Source of the DNA: Folioceros fuciformis | Taxonomy: Eukaryota | Reading direction: 5' to 3' | Length of the DNA stretch: 20,000 nt | NCBI GenBank assembly: GCA_049999805.1 | Contig: JBNGIO010006406.1 | Location: 206,045-226,044, forward strand | In this document: positions 1-15,699 of the stretch, in pieces | How positions within the stretch are numbered: position 1 is the first letter of the stretch | Layout of the letters: every line of letters begins with the position of its first letter | Notes under the pieces: generated by a model | What the model was told of the DNA's origin: nothing | Databases searched by the model: none | The model's input: the letters and a program-made list of their open reading frames with translations, nothing else | Translations under genes and position numbers: made by a program

Positions 1-323
1 CCCTGCAGCAACTGGTGGATCCGCGGCTCAGCCTCCACTCCCCTGAAGAGAAGGAAGTACTCGACATGGCCATCATTGCAAACTGGTGTACCCAACGTGC
101 ATCCAGCGTGCGGCCCAAGATGCGGACTGTATGGCTCATGCTCAACGGCACCATTGACATCCCAGAGCTCCCCAAGAACACTCAATCTAAAGGCTCATTC
201 GGCTATCCCATATTGTCGGACAGGTCCAACACCAACAGCTCATCTCCCAGCTCCGGATCAGTCTCCCAGTTTGCAGAACATCAGGAGTCGCAAATGGCCA
301 ACCTCATCCCCAGAGGTACCTAG
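1..323 (+). CDS. 3' end of a receptor-like Ser/Thr kinase gene (kinase subdomain XI and C-tail; SD-2/LRK10L-like); the gene starts upstream of the window
   Basis: Translation LQQLVDPRL...EVLDMAIIANWCTQRASSVRPKMRTVWLMLNGTIDIPELP matches the plant RLK C-terminal pattern (lvDp.l...v.....a.wC.q.....RP.M..V..mL.g...ip..P). It is followed by a Ser-rich tail and a TAG at 321-323. Confidence 0.8.
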   Translation, partial: LQQLVDPRLSLHSPEEKEVLDMAIIANWCTQRASSVRPKMRTVWLMLNGTIDIPELPKNTQSKGSFGYPILSDRSNTNSSSPSSGSVSQFAEHQESQMANLIPRGT

Positions 324-845: not shown

Positions 846-2312
846 TCAAAAAACCGGAGAATTAACAACCGTTTCCAGTTCTCTCGTTTCCGTGTCTGCG
901 GCAGGAGCAGTGGGAACCTTGGGCTGTAAGTCGATGAATTCGTTGGACTTGCGTGCAAGATGGGCTATGCTCACTCTTCCCGTTCTCTTGATGTAGTCAG
1001 CAACAGCTTGCATCTCCTCTGGAGAAATGTAAATGAATTTTCCTCTATCATCCATCACTCCTGATAGTCTCCCTGTGAAGTGAAATAGCAGCCGTCAGTG
1101 CTCATATCTGTGTATGGCAATGTCATTTCTTTTTCTTTGAAACTCCGGGCAACAAAAGACATGACTCACCTATTTGCTCCAGTTCTTGGATCCGGTTGAT
1201 GCAATCCTGAGACTTCATCTTAAACTCCCCAGCTAAGTCTTCTATGCCGACACATTTCTGCTCCTGTACATATACAAAAACAAGTCAACTTGCATGGCAA
1301 CTTGTCCTGCCATACTTTAAGAATCATCAGGGCATGACAGCATTCCCATACCTTGATAAACTCCACGAAATCGTTTAAAAGACTTTGTGTCTCAGCTTCT
1401 TCCGCCGCTAGGGTACCTTCATTTTCTACAGAGAACGCCCCCTTCCACTTCTCAAACTCCTCATTGGCTGCTGCTTCCTCTTTTTCTTTCTGCAGTCGAG
1501 CCGCTTCTTCCTGTTCCACACAACTGGTAAGCAACAAACGCAGAACTGCTTTCGCAAGCACCATCTTGCACAAGGAAATGTATCCATACCTTACGCTGCT
1601 CTTCGGCTTCCCTCTCCAAATCTTTTTTTCGTCGCATCTCTGCATAGTGGTCTGCTTTCTCCTGCCTGCTCTCTCTAGCCAAAGCTTCTGCCTGCATCAG
1701 GAAAGAGAGCTCAGGATCCGGACTGCAGCCGAATTCTGGACCCCATGCCCAGATGCAAAGCTCTCGTACACCGAAATCCTCACCTGCCTCCTGGCCGCGT
1801 TTTCTTGCTTCTTGGCATCCTTCTTCCTAGCGTTTTTCGCCACGTAATATCCACCATCCCCTTGCCCCTGCTCTTCTTCTTCCTCAGCCTCTCCACTTCC
1901 TTCACCTGCAAGTAGACCAACGGGCTTAGGGTAGACTACACACAAACAGCTCCACAACAACCTCTCGGCAAGAGAACAGCATCTACACCAGAAGTAGAAG
2001 CCGCGGCTGCTGCTGCTGCCGTCGCTCCTGGTCTCCTTCGCATCCGCTGCGTGCCCCTGGTTGCTGGCCCCCGTGCAACAGCAGGACCGGGAGCGCCATC
2101 CACCCTCTCCGCATCCTGTGCAGTGCATCCCGCAAACAGTCACCACCTTGCTCCACGAAAATGCTTCCTCATACTTCTCTCACATCTCCATCCACAAATA
2201 CCTCGTCAGAACCAGGGACGTCAACGGTACTAGGATGAGATTGGCCGCGCCATCTCCTCACGCCAAGCACCAGCAGCACCACGAACAACACCAACCCAAC
2301 TAAAGGAAGCAT
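846..2312 (-). CDS. DDRGK1: DDRGK domain-containing protein 1 (UFBP1; ER-anchored UFMylation adaptor), 7 exons: complement(join(846..1072,1170..1263,1352..1510,1590..1691,1784..1905,1989..2115,2202..2312)), 313 aa
   Basis: All six introns are GT..AG and the phases join into one open frame (942 nt). N-terminal signal anchor [24 protein letters not shown] motif, Glu/Lys-rich coiled coil, [12 protein letters not shown], and the PCI-like end with [40 protein letters not shown]. Confidence 0.95.
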
Positions 2313-2629
2313 GGTTTTCCAGCAATGGAAAGGAGGAGCGCAATGCCAATTCCTGATCCCGATGGTGAGTTTTCCTGTAGCCACTCGGTTTCGAGGCACG
2401 GTCGATCAAGTTACGGATATACCATGTTCATAGAAGCTTTCCTTGCAACTCCGATGGTAATGTCACAGCTAGTCTTCTGCCAACACCACTGCCAGCCGGC
2501 GCGGAACGCGAATTTAAACTTGTGGTCTGTGCAGTCCGAGTGTTGTTTAGATTCGCAAAACAGAAGAAATTCCGAGAAATTACACGAGGCATCGTCTGCT
2601 TGCATCTCGGGGTCGCCCGGCGGGACCCG

Positions 2630-3950
2630 CGTTCTTGACCTTCCACGCAACATTGGCCTCGCAAAATCAGTTGTCCTGATGTGTGCGTGTAGGGAATTGT
2701 AGGATGTAGGATGGGCAGGTGGCGGGCGACACCAGAATGCCAGGTATTAGGCAGTGGTATGGGTTGTGGAGGTGAAAAGGGGAGGCAGTGGTGTTGGAGC
2801 TGATCTGAGGCAGGTCGGTTCTCCTGCCCATTGAGAAATCCGGTATGGGCTGGACAGAGCTGTCCGATAGTATGGGCTTCACGACGACCCCATTATATCG
2901 TGCCGGAGCTCTGGGATATCGATGTGGTGGACATGTTCAGTACTTCCTTCTCTTCAGGGAACTGGAGGCTGAGCCTCGGATCTAACAATAGAAGGGAGGA
3001 ATCCTTTTGGCTTAGTTTCTGAGCCCACTCCACCAGGTCGACTTTCTTCGAGGGAAAGTCCTGGTTCACTACGCCTCTTCCACTCACAAGCTCCAGGAGG
3101 ACGATGCCGAAGGAGCGTACTCTGCTTTGGTCATGTCGGAAAGTTTCAAGGATGTCAACTGGACAGTCAGTGTGTTTACATAGTATGCAGCAGCGAGCCT
3201 GTGAAGGGTTTAGGGTGGAGCAAGATACCCCTTATGGCCCCGTGGTGATATGGGTGTTGGCCAACATCATCGTACAGGCTTGCAACTCCAAAATCTGCTA
3301 CCCGGGCATGGAAGTCCCTGATGTTGATAGGTTTCACGTCACAGTGAATCATACGTTTGAAGTACCGTATACGGTACTTGGATTCATCATGGAGGTAGAC
3401 TAGTCCACTGGCACTCCACGGAAACCTGTAGAGTACCTGTCTAGGGGATTTTCCGGCAAGAAATCCAGGCCTGCATTGTGCTTGCATTCTGTGCAGATTC
3501 AGGAGTCTGTCTCACCCAGACAATGCAGGAGAATTCAGACACGCTAGCTTTTACAGCATGAGTTTGTATGTGGAAGCGACCCAGATTTTAAGTGGTAAGA
3601 GATCACCCCTTTCCCAGGAAGGCCGCTGACGACCATTTTCACTTGTCAGCCACAATACAAGTCTTGCCCGAAGAATCGTTTTCACATTTGGTTGGAGGCA
3701 CAATCTGGAGCTTCAAGTCGGGTGGTTGAGCCAAGTAGATCTGCCAGTTCGGATGAACAAATTCCCAGTTCTGCATATGTAACACAACACGGAAATATTG
3801 TAAGAGGATCTGTGTGGCTGAATGTCGAGCGGGGAATTCGACAGGCCACGCTTCCACCTCTACGGAACGAAAGCTGTAGCGACAACGGGAAGCCTCAGTC
3901 CAAGAAAGAGTGATGATAAACAGGCCCAACAAATTAGGGCAGCAGATTTT
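2630..3950 (-). pseudogene. Degenerate receptor-like kinase (non-RD, HCD-type), inverted paralog of the kinase at 1-440, including its 3' UTR
   Basis: Motif remnants across frameshifts: TM-like LLGLFIITLSW, juxtamembrane TYAEL...LG, GLVYLHDE, IHCDVKP.NI...ARVADFG, KA..SFGIVLLELVSGR, LVEWAQ, LLDPRLSLQFPEEKEVLNM. About 76 nt of subdomain XI is deleted relative to 76-151. The reverse complement of 2630-2735 aligns with 331-440 (shared ttgcgaggccaatgttgc and tacatcctaca.ttccctaca). Confidence 0.85.
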
Positions 3951-4331
3951 GACTAGCATTCATGGTAAGGAGGTGTATTACGGGAGCACAGACCGTGTTC
4001 ACATTGTGCATCATTTTATTGTCATGGTCCACTTGTTTTTGTAGTTTTGTTTTCCCTTCGAGAGGTAAAGAGGGGCAAGTAGATTGCTGGCCATAGAGAA
4101 GCTCCTTCTGGGGTGCATCTGATCCTTGTGGGAGAGGCTTTCTTGTGGCTCGCTCTCGGATCATTTCCAGTCTCATCTCAATCCTCATCAATTTGAGACT
4201 ACGACTCTAAGAAGGCTGTGCAATCAAGTCGCATTGGGGCTTTTGGGCTTAAGTCTTACCCAGACTAGGTCACTATGTAGGTGGACATAGAAAACGCCTT
4301 CAACACAATATCTAGGGCAGCTATTTGGGAT

Positions 4332-4366
4332 GGGCCCCCGTCAATTCCTTTGAGTTTCATTCTTGC
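4332..4366 (-). pseudogene. rrn16: Plastid 16S rRNA fragment (35 nt)
   Basis: Reverse complement GCAAGAATGAAACTCAAAGGAATTGACGGGGGCCC is the conserved 16S ~900 region with the plastid-type AAGAATGAAAC. Confidence 0.9.
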
Positions 4367-4528
4367 TTTGCTATTTGAAGATATCTCTTCTAATCACTCT
4401 TCTTTGTAATTTTCCTCTAAGAGGGGGAATAGATGAATTATTAAACTTTTTCCGCATCAGTTATCCTAGCACAGATATTTCTCCACCTCGTGGGAACTAC
4501 GAGATCGCTCCAAGGATGCCGAAAGCAT

Positions 4529-4561
4529 GTGAAGGCCCCCAGCCGCATAGATAGTTCAATG
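4529..4561 (+). pseudogene. trnI: Fragment of the plastid trnI-GAU group II intron
   Basis: tgtgaaggcccccagccgcatagatagttcaatg resembles the recalled trnI intron 5' region TGTGAGGGCTCTCAGCCACATGGATAGTTCAATG. Confidence 0.7.
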
Positions 4562-4747
4562 ATTCAATATTCCAAAATGGTATTTTTTTGATGAGAATAA
4601 AAAGATTCTAATCTTTTACGAGATTAATCCTTCTACATCCTTAAAAAACTCCTCATACATTATCTGAATGTAGGTAAGTGTATGTGACAAAGTGTAAGAA
4701 AATATAGTAAAATTTAGTCAATTAAACTTAAATAAGAAACTTAATCT

Positions 4748-4779
4748 TGCAGTATCAGTCAGCCATAACCCCCCGTTAC
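4748..4779 (-). pseudogene. psaA: psaA fragment (V-T-G-G-L-W-L-T-D-T-A)
   Basis: Reverse complement gtaacggggggttatggctgactgatactgca encodes the PsaA VTGGLWLTDTA motif, one base short around the G run. Confidence 0.75.
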
Positions 4780-4811
4780 ACAAAACAGAATTCATACTAG
4801 TTTTTTTATCA

Positions 4812-4842
4812 GCGGGTATAGTTTAGTGGTAAAAGTGTGATC
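4812..4842 (+). pseudogene. trnG: Plastid trnG-UCC exon 1 plus the first bases of its group II intron
   Basis: GCGGGTATAGTTTAGTGGTAAAA (23 nt exon 1) is followed directly by GTGTGAT (intron start). Exon 2 is absent. Confidence 0.9.
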
Positions 4843-4934
4843 CTTTATTGCTTCGATGGCATGGCAAGTAGATCTAGTAAGCGTAAGAAATAATAATCAC
4901 TACAATAGAAATATGGGAAAATGTAGGTAAATGT

Positions 4935-4974
4935 AGTGCGTAATAGCTCACTGATCAAGCGCTCTTGCGCCGAA
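4935..4974 (+). pseudogene. rrn23: Plastid 23S rRNA fragment (GTPase-associated region)
   Basis: agtgcgtaatagctcactgatcaagcgctcttgcgccgaa versus plastid 23S AGTGCGTAATAGCTCACTGATCGAGCGCTCTTGCGCCGAA (one G>A change). Confidence 0.88.
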
Positions 4975-5159
4975 AAGACCAAACCCTTTGCGTGGGCCCG
5001 CCGTGCTTCTCTCGCAGCCGGCACCGAAACAGTTAAATAGCTTATGCTCCTAGAACAGAAGCCTTTTGAAGTGTGGATATGAAGTGTAGAGTTAACATAA
5101 GAGCGTTTTGTAAAACATAATGCTCAATAATGCTCATTGGGCTTCTTTCACCCTGCTTC

Positions 5160-5200
5160 ATACCGTCATTGCTTCTTCTCTAAGAAAAGGAGTTTGACGA
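5160..5200 (-). pseudogene. rrn16: Plastid 16S rRNA fragment (V3 region)
   Basis: Reverse complement ...cttttcttagagaagaagcaatgacggtat matches plastid 16S CTTTTC...GAGAAGAAGCAATGACGGTAT. Confidence 0.85.
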
Positions 5201-5221
5201 AATAGGAATAGATAAAATTGA

Positions 5222-5274
5222 AACAGACTGCCGGTGATAAGCAGGAGGAAGTGAGAGCGAAATGGGAGTAGCCT
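5222..5274 (+). pseudogene. 16S rRNA fragment (5222-~5255) fused directly to a 23S rRNA fragment (~5255-5274)
   Basis: aacagactgccggtgataagcaggaggaag corresponds to 16S AACAGACTGCCGGTGATAAGCCGGAGGAAG. gagcgaaatgggagtagccta corresponds to 23S GAGCGAAATGGGAGCAGCCTA. Confidence 0.8.
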
Positions 5275-5275
5275 A

Positions 5276-5314
5276 TCCAATAGGATTCGAACCTACATCA
5301 TAGGTTTAGAAGAC
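5276..5314 (-). pseudogene. trnR: 3' half of an organellar tRNA-Arg(UCU)
   Basis: Reverse complement GTCTTCTAAACCTATGATGTAGGTTCGAATCCTATTGGA has the anticodon loop CTTCTAA and T-arm GGTTCGAATCC. The 5' half is missing. Confidence 0.82.
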
Positions 5315-5412
5315 GAATTTTTTCCTAAAATTGGGGCAAGCCATAAGCCTTTGCTATTCCTTTATTAACCAATCAATCACTTATTCTTATTCCGGTATGA
5401 TATTCACATTCG

Positions 5413-5445
5413 AGTGCAATGCTCTGACCTCTGAGCTAAACAGGC
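5413..5445 (-). pseudogene. trnT: 5' half of plastid tRNA-Thr(UGU)
   Basis: Reverse complement GCCTGTTTAGCTCAGAGGTCAGAGCATTGCACT matches the trnT-UGU 5' half and is truncated at the anticodon loop. Confidence 0.8.
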
Positions 5446-8139
5446 TTGTCTTTTTTTTCTTGCAAAAAATGAAAATATTTTTTATTGGATTTATTTTTAT
5501 CAAAAAAGAAATAGGCCCCAAGTCAAAAAAGTTATTGCATGAGGTTTTAGTAGCATTGGGAGAGAAAGAAAGTAAGAGCTGAAAAGTGCGGTTGGATCAC
5601 AATTTCTCAATTTCAACTTTTTGAAGGAAAAATGACTTTAAATCTTTGTGTAATGGCTCCTAATGCTTATGGTTCTAATTATCTTCGTCCCCAATGTGTA
5701 TATGTCAGTAATAATAGTTTTTTTCTTTGAAGAAAAATAGGAAAAAAATTCATTCTTTTTTTCTTTCTATAGTTTAATATAGAAAAGCCGAAAAAACAAA
5801 AAAAATGAGCTTTTGGGCTTTGGTGGGCAATTGATGAACCTCATTCCTTTTACCCCTTCATTCTATAGCTCACCTTCTCTCCTCTACTAGGGAATTTTGT
5901 GCGTGATTCAATGGAAGGCACAAGACAGGGTGTTCCATTGGGGCATCTTTATGATGTCTCACTTTAGAGCCCTTTCTCTTACTGCCTTATTAATTACATC
6001 CCTCTATTCTTATATCTCTATGTGGCGAACAATTCTCACATTTTGGGACCAAGTGATACACAAGTGCAGCTTTCAAGCTTTTCTCCTTAGAGCTAGCTCG
6101 TATTGGTCTTAAGGTGAAGTTATCTAAGTGTAGGGTTTGGTCCACTTCTACATGATTGCTTCCTTTGCTCTTCTCGGGAGATGAAATTACTTCCTCACAA
6201 GACCTCCAAGTTTTGGGGGTCATGGTGGGACCTCCAACCTTTGTCCCAGGCTTTGCGAATGCGGCCCTTGAGAAGGACCTAGCCCATGCAGATGACTTCG
6301 GTAATTTAAGAGACCTACATGTGGCTTTCGGAATTCTTTCCTCATGTTTTGCACATCATCCGTTGTACCTTCTTCGAACCCCCTCTTTGACATTCTTAGC
6401 AAGCTAGAGGAGCTTTAACAATATGATCATGTAGGTTTGTGGTGATATGATTGGTCGTGGTACTTTTGAGTATGACATGGGGGACCTTGCTTGGCAACAT
6501 GCATCTCTTTCTATCTTGTTTGGAGGCATTTGTTTGCTAGTAATGGAGATATTGGCACTAGTAGCATTTCTCAAGAGTAGGGTCCTTTTGCCTCCTACTT
6601 TAACTTTCCATTTTCTCATTCATGATGCGTGCATTTTGGAATCTTTCGTCCTTAGTGGTGAGAAGGGTGCCCTCCCTTTGCAGGTGTCCCTAAGATCGGC
6701 TAGGGACTCTCTTTCTTTTGCGGCTAAGACTGCTATGCCTCAATTTTCATCTCTTCTTGCGAGGGGAATTCAGGGGCTCCAAGTTTCTCTTCTTGAGAAG
6801 AATTACGAGTAGATGTAGCTCAATCTTCTTCATGATTCTTTTATCCCCAAGCCTGTTTAGGTGCAAGCTCTTGGCTTGACCAGACATTTAGGCTTTCCAA
6901 ATCGCTCCAACCACATTCTCTATTGCAATGACGTTTTGCCTTGATTTGGTCTAGCCTTTGGCCTGCTCTTTCTCCTCTTGCAGTTGCGGGGCGCATATAG
7001 ACAACTTTGGTACTCATCTTGCCCCTTGCCTGATTGGGGGTCAATGAATTACTACACAACGTTGTGTGAAGATGTCATGTTTTTGTTGGCCAAGGAGGTA
7101 GGCTTTGTGCCCCTCAGGGAGCGCCAATACACTTTACTTAATGGCATTTCTCTTCGGGTTGATCTTTTCCTCTTCAAGGAGATATATCAAGTTTTTATTG
7201 CTAATGTGGTCATAACTAACCCCACACGGGTCACAGCCTATGAGTAGGTTGTTTTCAACTCTCAACGTAGGGCGGCAAAGGGGAGTGCATTGGTCAAGGT
7301 TCATAAGTACAACCCTTTACAGGTTGGACACATCTTTATCGTGCAAGGTATTTTCCAAGTTTTTGAAGTCTTGCGCCAGGGGATTCATAAGAGGAAAAAT
7401 GAGCTTGGTCTTTTCTCTTTCATATATTGTAGCATTTTTCTTGGTAGAGGTTTCCATTGCTCTATAACAAGCATTGGCTAATGCCATATATAAGACGTTA
7501 GCAATGGCAGATTGGGCAACATCAACAACTCTAGTGCTTGGTAAAGCCTTTCTTCTCCCACCAAACCATGATGTTTTAGGTGGTCTTGGTAGTGATTAGG
7601 CTTTGAGGGGTTAACCCCTAGTTTATCTCCCTCTCTCTAGGGTTAGATGGATTTTTCCATCTTGATTTTCTAAAATAAATCATATTATTTAAAGGTAGAT
7701 AAAATTATCAAATAGGATTAAAATTTTAATAAGTTCCTCCCAAAATGCATAATTATAATTAATTACTTCCTTATTATAATTTTAATGTATATATAAAACA
7801 AAGCTATGTAGGATATTTTAGTTAATTCATGAATCCTTCATAGAAAATTTGAGCACCAATCTACAGGGAAGAGGAGACATCCCACCATAATAGTTCACGG
7901 CCATGCTGATCTTAGCTAGAGTCTAAGGAGTGCCATTGCGATGTAATTTGGGTAGAAGAATAATTTAGACAAGATTGATTGGGTTTCATCATTTGATCAT
8001 AAGTGTTCACAGATCGGTTTGTTTTCCCTTGTCTCGATTGGCTTTTGATCATCAGTAGCCAAAGATCGGCTTGTTTTCCCTTGTCTTAAACACAACAATG
8101 GTTGGCAAAGCTTGGAATCGACTTGTTTCTCCTTTGTCT

Positions 8140-8526
8140 CATGAACTAAACAATCTGGCATCGACTTCCTTCTTCGTCATCCCATGAACAAAACAATCTG
8201 GCATCGACTTCCTTCTTCGTCGTCCCATGAACAGAACAATCTGGCATCGACTTCCTTCTTCGTCGTCCCATGAACAGAACAATCTGGCATCGACTTCCTT
8301 CTTCGCCGTCCCATGAACAAAACAATCTGGCATCGACTTCCTTCTTCGCCGTCCCATGAACAAAACAATCTGGCATCGACTTCCTTCTTCGTCGTCCCAT
8401 GAACAAAACAATCTGGCATCGACTTCCTTCTTCGTCGTCCCATGAACAAAACAATCTGGCATCGACTTTCTTCTTCGTCGTCCCATGAACAAACCAATCT
8501 GGCACCGACTTCCTTCTTCGTCGTCT
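8140..8526. repeat. 43-bp minisatellite, 9 near-perfect units, with degenerate related units flanking it (~7990-8870)
   Basis: Unit catgaacaaaacaatctggcatcgacttccttcttcgtcgtcc starts at 8140, 8183, 8226, 8269, 8312, 8355, 8398, 8441 and 8484; a decaying unit starts at 8527. Confidence 0.97.
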
Positions 8527-9589
8527 CATGAACAAAACAGCCAGGCATCGACTTCTTCTTTGTCTCATGAGCGGAACGTCTTCTTTGTCTCATGAGCGAA
8601 AGTCTGGCATCAACTTGCTTCTTTGTCTCATGGACAGAACAGCCTGACATTGACTTGTTTCTTGTTTCCCCTTTGTCTGATGAATAGGACAGCTTGGCAT
8701 GATGGCATGAACTTATTTCTGCTTTGTCTCCTCTACCCTCCACAGTCTATTTGTCTCATATAGCCTACAGAACCTATTTGTCTCATCCTGCCTACACTAG
8801 GTTGTGTTCAACGTGCTTGCCAGGGCTGGTTGATCATCAGTAGCCAGACATCGACTTGTCCTTCCTTATCTAAGACCGCAGCAAGGTCTTTCTTGTATGA
8901 GACAACGTAGCCATCGTCAGCGGTATTCGACGCGGATCATTAGCCTTATGAGACGTCAGTCGCAGTTGACAGCACATCAATTGCAACAGGCTTAGGGAGA
9001 ACTTCAGGGTCTAACCGTGGTGGTGCATTGCAGTAGACTAGGCCCGAAGCTACCAGACTAGACCCGAAGCTGACAGACTGTGGTCAACTCTGGTGGAGGC
9101 CATACCCAAGATCCAACAACACCATTCTCGTCTGGCGAGATCATCCGAGATCTGCTACTACTACAGTGAACATACGGGCACAGGTTGGGAGTGAGAAGCG
9201 AGCAGGGATCGTTGACAGGAAGAACTTCTGTTGGCTTGATCACATACTGATGTCAAGACTTTGACCAGACTTCGCGTCTAGAAGACACTTTGGAACATGT
9301 GACAAGCAATTTTCCAGACCATGACCCGACCTTCCCATCTCCCCGGAACAATGGTTTGAAGATGAGCAAGCCAACCACAACGCCAATGAGACTAACCAGT
9401 TCACACCTCACTTCTCTCAGCTTCAAGAATTGGCCTTGATGACGAGAGAAAAACTCAACTGGGGATTCCCCATCCGTGGACATCACTCATGTACTTGCAA
9501 GGAAGTCCATCAGAGGGTCACAACAAGCTGGGCGGGAGGTGATACGGTTTGAAAAACTTAGCAGCCAAGCTGGGCAGCTGTGGGACTGT

Positions 9590-13011: not shown

Positions 13012-14138
13012 GGTTATGGGCTATGGGTTTCAGTTTTTGGTATATAAGCAATTGTAAGGAAAGGTTCTCAGTTTCATCACTTTGAGAGAGGCTTGTCCAA
13101 GTGAACGGGCCCTCGGCCATGAGAGCGTGCAAAAAAGCAAATTGCGGTGCAGAAATTGCGATTAAGTCTAGACTGAAGTTAGACAAGTGACAACTTAGCT
13201 TCGGGGTCAAATTTTGTAGTATCGAACTTTGGCAGGAACTTGACTAGACATCACATTCGTGCTTTGGGAAGTCACCTGATAACTCTGGACATCGTTACAG
13301 TTGCTTTTCCCACTTGGTGTCAGGTCTCAAGTTTGGGAGCATCCTCTCCCAGATCATTTTCTCACAATCGAACCGTTCTCGACGTTGTCCACTACGCCAT
13401 CCGTAGGCATGTGGTCATATGTATTCGTTTTAGGTATGTGTCTATACGAGGTATGTGTCCATACGTGGTCCAATGAACTCTTTTAATCCCCTATGACACG
13501 TGGGTCAAATATACCCTATACCCTAAGCGAGCCTGACACCTGCACGAATGAATGAATTTCTTTGCATTTAAAAAAATATTTATGAGGTCCCTAAGTAGTT
13601 ATATGTCTAATAATTTCTACTTAGTATGCTGAACTACTAACACGAATAAAAACAGAAGAAGTACTAAAAATCTCCCATTAAAATGGTACATAGTGCTTCA
13701 TAGTTTGTGATGTACTAGAAATCCTCCATTAAAATGGTAATCCTTCACTAAAATGATACATAGTGCTTCACATTGCTTGCTATTATTTGTGATGGTGTCT
13801 GAAATGTATATAACATCCTTTTAAATTGATTGAGAAAGTATCATCCTCTCCGACTTTTAATACATGTAAAAGATATAAGTAAAGAGTCTATTTTGATATT
13901 CAAAAGAAAATACAATAAAATAATGGATTATTATAGCTAATTCTAGAACTAGATCTTAGAGATTCTTGTAGAATAATTTTTCATAAAATAAAAAATATAT
14001 TATTATTCAAAAATTACACATGCCCTAATTTTAACTTGTAGATGATGATACCATGGCAGTTCTTACAACATTATAATAACCAACATGTATAAAAGTGGTG
14101 TTTTCATATTGAGATTGTAGATAAACAATTATTTCCCT

Positions 14139-14338
14139 TACAATCATTTTCATTAATCATTCATTATGTATCTACAATCATTTCCATTAATCATTCATTG
14201 TGTATCTACAATCATTTCTATTAATCATTCATTGTGTATCTACAATCATTTCCGTTAATTATTCATTGTGTATCTACAATCATTTCCATTAATCATTCAT
14301 TGTGTATCTACAATCATTTCCATTAATCATTCATTGTG
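14139..14338. repeat. 34-bp AT-rich minisatellite, about 5.9 units
   Basis: Unit tacaatcatttccattaatcattcattgtgtatc starts at 14139, 14173, 14207, 14241, 14275 and 14309. Confidence 0.96.
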
Positions 14339-15699
14339 ACTTTCCACTACCATGTTCAATGCTTGGACACATTCATCTTCTTCATCAAACGTACTTACAT
14401 TTTGTTACATTACTAACTCAGAACATATGATCGAAGGAATATTGATTAACATAAAAGTTTTGCTACTCACATTTGCAATAAGATACTCTACATTCAATTA
14501 AATTTCTTGGATAACACCTACCATAAGTAATGTTGTCATGTCTCTAGTGTGGATTGATAATTTGTGTCTAGGGACATAAAGAGGTCCGCATTCATCTTCT
14601 ATGTCGTTGTAGTCCTAGAATTCATTTCTAAGGAAATGATTTGTGTCAAGAAATTCTAAATCTATGGGTCTAGCTGTCCTACAATCTGTTCCTACCAGAG
14701 AGGGAATCAACCACTGTACTTAAGTCCACCACCACTGGACTTGGTTTCACCACCGTGGTAGATTTAGTCACCATGGTAGGACCCACACATTTGGGTCGCA
14801 GCATCTGGATGACATGGTTTTTCCTACCATGTCTATTAGGGAGCTATGGCCTATGCATGCTAATTCTCATGCACACTAGGCCACACTCATGTAATTTCAC
14901 ACCCAGAGCTCACTAGTAGTTGAGTAGTTGCACTTAAGGGTCACACTCGCCACGACCCTTCCCTCCATCACCGGTTCTCATTGATCCTACACACAATTCA
15001 TACCCAATCTTGAATAGCACTCCACGTTTTTAGGCACTCACACTCCACCATGCACAAAATAACCACACAATTCCCACCTTGGTTTACACAAACCCGTCTT
15101 TATGTCATATAAATCCCTCCTCAGGTCACACAGACCTCACCTTGGGCGACACAAACCCCTCATCAAGATTAAACACAATTTAGCTAGACAGCGAAATGGA
15201 AGAGGGAAAAATTAAACACTTGGTCGACTCCACAAGTGTGTCACAAACTTGCGTTCCCACCCCATCTTCTGCAAAAAAATTTCTCCCTTGCCAAGTGTTG
15301 AGCATTCTTCACCACTAGTTACAGCAATTGTGGAGCTTGGTCACATAGCTTTTAACCACCTAAGGATCTCCCTGATCCTCTTGTGACAAGAAGACAACAC
15401 ACCGAATCAGGCCATCATTGATCATATGACTCCAACTCACAATGCACACGAATTCGACACAAGGGAGCTCACACATGAAATTGTCTAATGAGAGAGACAC
15501 AAAAAGGTCTCTTATGCATTTGGACTCAAAGCGTCATTAATCCCATAACTTTCCAGAGTCTAAAAATACTAGCCCATCACAGACGCACCAATAAATTCGG
15601 TGTCTCTAGGTTCAAAATTTTCCAGCACCTTATCTTTTAATCCAAAAGAAAATCCTAACCTATGATGCTACTCTCCTCCTGAATTAGCATGCTCGCCCC

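Follow-up and report, generated by a model that had tools for sequence, protein, structure and literature searches.

The window analyzed here is a stretch of 20,000 nt from Folioceros fuciformis (GenBank assembly GCA_049999805.1, contig JBNGIO010006406.1, positions 206,045–226,044 of the forward strand). At 4332–5806 it contains an insert of 1475 nt (35.7% GC; the 'at' at either edge is ambiguous), which is very probably a young complex nuclear plastid DNA (NUPT) generated in a single event, whatever the joining chemistry. The insert carries short and scrambled tracts from plastid or other high-copy DNA that are near-identical to organelle contigs, and it lies in a nuclear setting at a clean site. 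The initial annotation, made from the letters of the window, had described a mosaic at 4333–5807; depth, loose ends and a blastn-short control show that the mosaic is real and far beyond chance. The locus is an extreme, recent form of the known complex NUPT and differs from it in scale, comprising 20 or more tracts, none of them above 51 nt.

The main evidence comes from contigs of public sequencing runs aligned to positions 3900–6300 of the window at a likeness of at least 85%. Runs X1–X3 belong to one sample, and run X4 belongs to a different sample and study under the same species label. Statements on contigs and loose ends apply among the matches listed, which comprise 31 of the 142 contig pieces and 24 of the 157 loose ends. 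In X1, 16 of the 19 bins within 4305–5843 have a depth of 180–10,855x and all 11 flank bins have a depth of 10.7–31.4x; the same 16 insert bins reach at least 137x in X2. The region 4332–5806 thus presents high-copy contigs of about 250–10,000x within nuclear-depth DNA of about 8–31x. These high-depth contigs match short tracts only and then diverge (36 of 46 in X1, 38 of 46 in X2 and 11 of 11 in X4), with loose ends exactly at tract borders, for example at 4332/4333, 4366, 4528, 4561, 4935 and 4976. The insert itself is embedded in nuclear chromosomal DNA: the flanks and the unique interior stretches are found at 7–31x, compared with at least 350x for the organelle contigs, and flank contigs enter the insert exactly on both sides.

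The depth of the organelle contigs also bears on the source. Classes of about 350–490x and about 1040x would fit single-copy and repeat regions of a plastome, respectively, and contigs at about 350–1040x match the tracts with 0–2 differences. One depth class (479x in X1) carries the tracts ending at 4396, 4841, 5276/5314 and 5802 in another order and on other strands, indicating that these tracts come from one plastid contig and were scrambled in the nucleus. Nine tracts listed from the non-bisulfite runs differ from the organelle contigs in 5 of 358 letters, and the insert is therefore young. As for run X3, almost all differences between its contigs and the window, at 5315–5486, 5693–5838 and 5944–6214, are of two kinds, G>A at 42 places and C>T at 6, and the run seems to derive from bisulfite-converted DNA. 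Conversions falling in the insert and in the right flank would in that case mark unmethylated cytosines, which is odd for a repeat, though the contigs are not quantitative.

The insertion site was examined through the flanks and their paralogues. The 1.5-kb flanks have a GC content of 48.7% (left) and 44.5% (right), in contrast to that of the insert. The left flank (4268–4331, plus strand) is a member of a dispersed nuclear repeat and has an open reading frame (ORF) reading VDIENAFNTISRAAIWD, and the ORF of the right flank (5807–5890, plus strand) carries on the same frame (ELLGFGGQLMNLIPF...). Paralogue contigs at nuclear depth match 4268–4322 with 6 differences in 55 letters, and in a paralogous repeat copy lacking the insert a contig joins 4322 to 5805 with TTG between them. 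Read across the site, the flanks form a single open frame (...AIWD|ELLGFGG...), which indicates a clean insertion with at most two ambiguous letters and no target loss; at most 2 nt of the target were lost or duplicated. The terminal A-run of the insert mostly belongs to the last plastid tract, and there is no added poly(A). Nuclear-depth contigs cover 3900–4361 without differences (12.9x in X1 and 8.3x in X2), a nuclear contig covers 5315–5692 and an X1 contig of depth 10.2 covers 5667–6300, again with 0 differences in both cases. The right junction and several inner junctions are bridged by such nuclear-depth contigs. The reading VDIENAFNTISRAAIWD looks reverse transcriptase (RT)-like, and by their motifs the flanks presumably resemble a decayed RT gene; Pfam assigned no family to the flanks, and a search of the ESM Atlas gave no name for the repeat. 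A 12-mer, GCTTTTGGGCTT, is found at 4239–4250, some 80 nt before the insert begins, and a second time at 5809–5820 directly after it; this recurrence probably reflects either chance or a motif that belongs to the flanking repeat.

Sequence comparison gives independent positions for many of the tracts. The reference loci comprise 880 kb of fetched DNA, mostly plastid contigs that are distant from the host, whose own plastome and mitogenome are not among them. Against these loci, blastn-short at E<=0.001 gave nine match intervals in the insert, none in 11 other 1475-nt tiles of the window (the tiles exclude 2951–4331) and none in 20 shuffles. One of the nine intervals, 5479–5503, was discarded, since it matches a GC-rich bacterial contig by chance. 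The rRNA operon was represented by a plastid contaminant contig of a bacterial assembly (G005:C43), which was annotated with Rfam and ARAGORN. No RNA gene was detected in the window by Rfam at the gathering score or by ARAGORN, and none of the 10 ORF-bounded pieces queried had a useful Pfam match.

Twelve tracts could be assigned, namely three of 16S, two of 23S, the trnI intron, a probable trnA intron, trnG-UCC, psbC, trnR-UCU, atpB/atpE and a tRNA-like tract. Eleven of them have counterparts among the genes or introns of the plastid contigs or in a cyanobacterial rRNA operon, which marks the insert as plastid-derived. Among the 11 snippets named in the initial annotation, eight were borne out: the three of 16S, the trnI intron, trnG exon 1, the two of 23S and the 3′ half of trnR-UCU. 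The 16S tracts are located at 4332–4366 (35 nt, antisense), which is identical at 35 of 35 positions to G005:C43 4588–4622 within an Rfam small subunit (SSU) rRNA match at 3978–5467(-) and has loose ends at 4332/4333 and 4366; at 5160–5195 (36 nt, antisense), which agrees with an X4 contig with 0 differences and corresponds to G005:C43 5033–5067 within the 16S gene; and at 5224–5255 (32 nt, sense), which matches G005:C43 4367–4335 at 94–96%. The first 23S tract, at 4935–4976 (42 nt, sense), agrees with an X4 contig with 0 differences; its identity to a Scytonema (cyanobacterial) record is 97.6%, within the Rfam large subunit (LSU) rRNA match 1398–4218(+) of L153. The second, at 5255–5275 (21 nt, sense), is identical at 20 of 21 positions to G005:C43 1313–1293 in an LSU match (E=5e-4). 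Two further tracts belong to the spacer of the operon. The tract at 4480–4528 (49 nt, sense; X2 contig of depth 1042 with 1 difference) is probably from the trnA intron, with 33 of 37 positions identical to G005:C43 2190–2154 between two group II intron matches, and the trnI intron tract at 4528–4561 (34 nt, sense; loose ends at 4528 and 4561) matches G005:C43 3625–3592, a segment with the 16S gene on one side and the first group II intron match on the other.

Outside the rRNA operon, the tract at 4810–4841 (32 nt, sense; joints at 4841) contains trnG-UCC exon 1 with the first bases of its intron. Its 30-mer is found exactly in 12 plastid contaminant contigs and in at least 110 metagenome contigs, was not found in viral contigs, and is followed downstream by a group II intron in L045, L024 and L014. 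The plastid matches retrieved with this 30-mer are all distant, the top identity for trnR being 35/39. The 12 contaminant contigs (L001–L012) are short and come from species-representative bacterial assemblies of several genera; their exact land-plant trnG-UCC exon-intron 30-mer indicates plant plastid contamination of those assemblies. The 3′ half of tRNA-Arg(UCU) occupies 5276–5314 (39 nt, antisense; Rfam tRNA E=0.0021), has joints at 5276 and 5314 at depth 479, and is identical at 35 of 39 positions to positions 30–68 of the tRNA-Arg(tct) predicted by ARAGORN in L024. Two coding tracts had not been named before. One is psbC at 4978–5006 (29 nt, sense), reading TKPFAWARRA, with 27 of 29 positions identical to 17 plastid loci and a counterpart in the CP43 ORF of L045, and the other is the 3′ end of atpB with the start of atpE at 5621–5664 (44 nt, sense), reading MTLNLCVMAPN, which is 82–84% identical to G004:C13 and G003:C120; ORFs of L022 contain the matching atpB tail and atpE start. 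In PDB, the ORF containing atpE had chance matches only.

The remaining snippets of the initial annotation fared less well. The proposed 5′ half of trnT at 5413–5445 is a tRNA-like 5′ half, with a weak Rfam match (E=2.8) at 5415–5444 (about 30 nt, minus strand), and lies under a high-copy contig; trnT is a candidate identity, and none of the 333 tRNAs of the fetched loci resembles the tract (best score 15). The depth there is about 258 in X1 and about 137 in X2, and in X1 it changes from 7 at 5414 to 265 at 5416–5435 and back to 7 at 5448. This depth class is unlike the plastid classes, so the tract may be from another replicon, perhaps a mitochondrial one, in which case the insert would be a plastid-mitochondrial mosaic. 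A psaA snippet had been proposed at 4748–4779, where the minus-strand ORF translates to NGGLWLTDTA, a reading that may be PsaA-like. It had no match in Pfam, in PDB (0 matches) or in the fetched loci, and the depth of its bin can be explained without a psaA tract. Likewise, the suggested 16S 3′ end at 5586–5600 agrees at 14 of 15 nt (E=1.9), which is not significant, and falls inside a stretch of nuclear depth only.

Nine tracts are bounded by the sequencing runs alone, one of which is the tRNA-like tract described above. Those considered to be of plastid origin, with no gene assigned, are 4364–4396 (33 nt), 4667–4717 (51 nt) and 5768–5802 (35 nt). The first is found on the depth-479 contig of the trnG and trnR tracts, in which 5314 is joined to 4364 and 4396 is joined to 4841 on opposite strands (depth 479.3, X1). 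The second is AT-rich and the longest of all, and matches a 1135-nt contig of X2 (depth 395) with 0 differences; a 31-mer taken from it was not found in metagenome contigs. The third is the last tract before the right flank, with a joint from 5802 to 5276 (depth 479/492), five X3 loose ends before 5768, and a depth of 489 at 5788 versus 10 at 5767. The others are organelle tracts without an assigned gene: 4451–4482 (32 nt; X4 contig, 0 differences), 4604–4633 (30 nt; X4 loose ends before 4604 and behind 4633), 4717–4749 (33 nt; X4 contig, 1 difference), 4875–4912 (38 nt; X4 contig, 0 differences; X3 loose end behind 4912) and 5663–5704 (42 nt; X4 contig, 1 difference). One additional tract ends at 5410.

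The initial annotation had left the AT-rich gaps between its snippets unnamed and considered the case that they too were pieces of about 40 nt. This holds for many of them, because organelle tracts were found at 4364–4396, 4451–4482, 4480–4528, 4604–4633, 4667–4717, 4717–4749, 4875–4912, 4978–5006 (psbC), 5621–5664 (atpB/atpE), 5663–5704 and 5768–5802, and bin depths imply further ones in 4562–4603, 4634–4666 and parts of 4780–4874 and 5315–5410. At the sensitivity of the aligner, it does not hold for three stretches of nuclear depth only. These are 4397–4450 (54 nt, 30% GC), where the depth of bin 4386–4466 is explained by the neighbouring tracts alone; 5446–5620 (175 nt, 29% GC), where the X1 bins of 5439–5600 have depths of 29.4 and 7.08; and 5705–5767 (63 nt, 19% GC), with an X1 depth of 10.2 at 5725, 5751, 5755, 5763 and 5767. 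They may be tracts under the aligner floor, or may have had another template or none. From bin 5034–5114 (81 nt), which has zero cover in the runs, nothing can be concluded. Searches for repeats found no local templates in or near the insert; within it, a near-duplicate (15 of 16 letters) of the start of tract 4667–4717 recurs at 4920–4935.

In total, 20 tracts are bounded, with lengths of 21–51 nt (mean 35.9, median 34.5), and they cover 706 of 1475 nt (48%), so that the 30–40 fragments estimated in the initial annotation are plausible. Eight junctions abut, with overlaps of 3, 3, 1, 1, -1, 1, 0 and 2 nt; six of the eight therefore share 1–3 nt and two share none. Multiple non-collinear plastid fragments that abut in mixed orientation are a feature of complex NUPTs, and the insert shows this feature. 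Polarity is mixed, with eight sense and five antisense tracts if psaA is counted (p=0.58), and 16S occurs in both. A size-restricted pool of degradation products, also raised by the annotation, is a candidate source at most: above a detection floor of about 21–28 nt, lengths of 21–51 nt would also fit a simple geometric tail.

It is well established that complex NUPTs and, more widely, complex nuclear organelle DNAs (NORGs) can form in one event from several to hundreds of fragments (PMC12129026, PMC6215612, PMC12863932), and their parts are generally regarded as ligated before or during capture (PMC12129026, PMC6215612). Other origins have to be weighed for the present insert. Fragmentation and shuffling of NUPTs after insertion have been documented (PMC3989485, PMC12863932), and a stepwise origin is thus conceivable, with one long NUPT undergoing deletions and rearrangements afterwards, or with a hotspot that received small NUPTs repeatedly. 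Yet the difference of 5 letters in 358 leaves little time for at least 20 rearrangements, the tracts abut directly with overlaps of -1 to 3 nt, and, with sources that include the rRNA operon as well as several single-copy loci, more than 99% of a long precursor would need clean removal; a stepwise origin is very unlikely, in agreement with the initial annotation, which had argued against later decay of one long NUPT. Still less probable is that the insert copies a tract already scrambled in an organelle genome, such as plastid-derived mitochondrial DNA. The tract at 5415–5444, with its different depth class and perhaps another replicon as its source, would suit such an origin, but among the matches listed no high-depth contig passes from one tract into its neighbour, loose ends stand at the tract borders, and interior stretches have nuclear depth only. 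The collinear organellar source that the annotation had named as its own counter-case was thus not found. An artefact, either a chimera of assembly or library or a by-product of laboratory transformation, was also considered in view of the shared sample of X1–X3, which may be the assembly's own data, and of the left half of the insert, which is unbridged among the matches listed. It is highly improbable, as contigs of 7–13x reproduce both outer junctions and 5315–6300 exactly, the insertion is in frame with the repeat without target loss, and no plasmid or vector sequence other than rRNA was matched in the insert.

The annotation had also considered a retroelement RT, and an RNA-mediated route would involve abundant fragments of plastid rRNA, tRNA halves and mRNA that were reverse-transcribed, perhaps by end-to-end template jumping of such an enzyme, and then inserted. 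Each of the 12 assigned tracts belongs to a transcribed unit (the rRNA operon in seven cases, while three are related to tRNAs), tract sizes are like those of tRNA halves, and the flanks may be retroelement-like. Copying of plastid RNAs in one pass is nevertheless disfavoured by the mixed polarity, by the tract spanning the trnG exon-intron border and by the two intron tracts. Besides, the AT-rich tracts without gene assignment look non-coding, Pfam did not confirm an RT in the flanks, and the insert lies in the middle of a repeat with a target duplication of at most 2 nt and without added poly(A), unlike a retroelement insertion; the RNA-mediated route is therefore unlikely. Since decay, a hotspot, a pre-scrambled source, an artefact and one-pass RT do not fit, a filler made in one step at a repaired break remains. 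Its synthesis by iterative, microhomology-primed template switching, through Pol-theta-type end joining or microhomology-mediated break-induced replication/fork stalling and template switching (MMBIR/FoSTeS), is a possibility to be taken seriously, if not a probable one. Here a 3′ end at the break would anneal to plastid DNA located in the nucleus, copy tens of nt, dissociate and re-prime elsewhere. The 1–3 nt shared at six of the eight resolved junctions would suit this process, and the tract lengths are like the tail of a process of low processivity. The stretches of nuclear depth only could be many tracts under the aligner floor, one of them holding the 16S-like 15-mer (14/15, not significant), and the recurrence at 4920–4935 could be a re-use of the start of tract 4667–4717. 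In the Oryza study, template switching was put forward as an origin of complex inserts, which were said to hold 'several to hundreds of fragments' (PMC12129026). On the other hand, overlap is absent at two of the eight junctions (0 and -1), its extent is by estimate barely above the chance expectation in AT-rich DNA, and from one tract to the next the source shifts between the rRNA operon and single-copy loci instead of staying local. Known Pol-theta fillers are copied mainly from near the break.

Ligation of very short plastid DNA fragments in a single event is the explanation that we tentatively prefer, with less than even confidence and only a slight lead over template switching. According to this model, a double-strand break would have occurred inside a decayed copy of the dispersed nuclear repeat, and heavily degraded plastid DNA would have reached the nucleus. 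Plastid fragments would then have been concatenated by non-homologous end joining (NHEJ), and the concatemer would have been captured at the break, which would be sealed by a filler of 1475 nt composed of at least 20, probably 30–40, very short plastid tracts from scattered loci in either orientation with overlaps of 0–3 nt. A single event, repair of a double-strand break, and ligation of pre-formed fragments rather than copying are what we infer. The junction spectrum resembles that of end-joined shattered arrays, which show blunt joins and overlaps of 1–4 nt (10.1101/379644).

Several observations weigh against this preference or limit the data behind it. In the literature searched, so far as the sources were accessible, no precedent was found for one natural event that concatenates at least 30 duplexes of about 35 bp. 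The 292 nt of nuclear depth only (4397–4450, 5446–5620 and 5705–5767, with 19–30% GC) would be left unexplained by ligation of fragments of at least 30 nt, unless their sources lie below the aligner floor. The rRNA-operon tracts, i.e., the seven of 16S (three), 23S (two) and the two spacer-tRNA introns within 4332–5275, are over-represented at 7 of 20 (P=0.0013, or 0.034 if there are 35 tracts), in a test biased by recognizability through distant references. In a typical plastome layout, the operon would be expected to account for about 9%. Explicit tiling extends to only 48% of the insert and exact junctions to eight joins. As for the assembly, the left junction is bridged by 30 letters, one below the 31-letter bridging rule, and 4361–5315 has no bridging nuclear-depth contig among the matches listed, while the sample of X1–X3 may itself be the source of the window assembly. 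Moreover, no orthologous empty allele was seen, the copy without the insert being a paralogue (6/55 differences).

The insert can be compared with known systems. Complex NUPTs of flowering plants (Oryza, PMC12129026; clusters in PMC12863932) likewise consist of non-collinear plastid fragments of mixed orientation at one nuclear site, with blunt or short-microhomology junctions, and are thought to arise in one event at a break. Here, by contrast, every bounded tract is 21–51 nt, and at least 20 of them occur in 1.5 kb. Numins (Portugez et al., 2018; PMC6215612) are also concatenated organelle fragments with NHEJ signatures; their published examples have fragments of hundreds to thousands of bp, unlike the present tracts, and here only one tract, of a deviating depth class, may be mitochondrial. 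Shattered transgene arrays obtained by biolistics similarly contain dozens of small, randomly oriented pieces whose joints are blunt or have 1–4 nt of microhomology, but they are experimental, arise from delivered DNA and have a mean fragment of 410 bp (10.1101/379644); in the present case no vector was found and the source is the cell's own plastid DNA. Filler DNA made by Pol-theta at transfer DNA (T-DNA) or break junctions in plants is likewise composite, with short templated stretches that run in either direction and microhomology at the junctions. In comparison with such fillers, the insert is 1.5 kb long and draws on at least 20 distant plastid sites. Typical Pol-theta fillers amount to tens of nt and have their templates close to the junction.

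The short tracts are also of consequence for surveys. The Oryza pipeline required match clusters of at least 50 nt (PMC12129026), and another survey retained only matches of at least 100 bp. Only one of the 20 bounded tracts reaches 50 nt, and with these cut-offs a locus like the present insert would be largely invisible to such surveys. In the literature searched, no description was found of a mosaic made solely of plastid tracts below 52 nt, with the reservation that supplements, which this search did not cover, may list cases. It is conceivable, if rather doubtful, that the insert records a separate route by which organelle DNA reaches the nucleus, one that escapes current pipelines. Either a break-repair polymerase may have hopped at least 30 times over plastid DNA in trans, in which case the insert would be the longest natural templated filler known, or a nuclease-limit pool of plastid DNA of about 35 nt, enriched for the rRNA-operon and origin region, may have been concatenated. 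Such loci preserve dozens of fresh repair junctions together, and one of them combined with the host plastome could reveal whether organelle DNA enters as ligated debris or as the template of a switching polymerase. If micro-mosaics are common, both the NUPT content of genomes and the role of organelle DNA as a repair filler are systematically underestimated. The present case is a single locus in a single genome, and its weight depends on finding more.

Other features of the window and of the reference contigs may be mentioned. Inverted repeat pairs are present at 13–75/2925–2987 (86%) and 950–1110/10285–10445 (81%). The first pair lies inside kinase-like ORF fragments, 3–323(+) and 2893–3231(-), which suggests an inverted duplication of the end of a receptor-kinase gene. 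The other AT-rich parts of the window, at 7600–7850 and 13540–14500, proved to be ordinary repeats rather than organelle mosaics. A tandem array at 14139–14338 has an AT-rich unit of 34 nt in 5.9 copies (95% match), and another at 8113–8564 has a unit of 43 nt in 10.5 copies (93% match) with long open frames on the minus strand. In the rRNA-operon reference G005:C43 (L152), an Rfam LSU match at 1–1548 (model positions 1–1618) spans 5S rRNA and tRNA-Arg(ACG), so that the 23S gene of this contig may be truncated or rearranged, or the contig misassembled.

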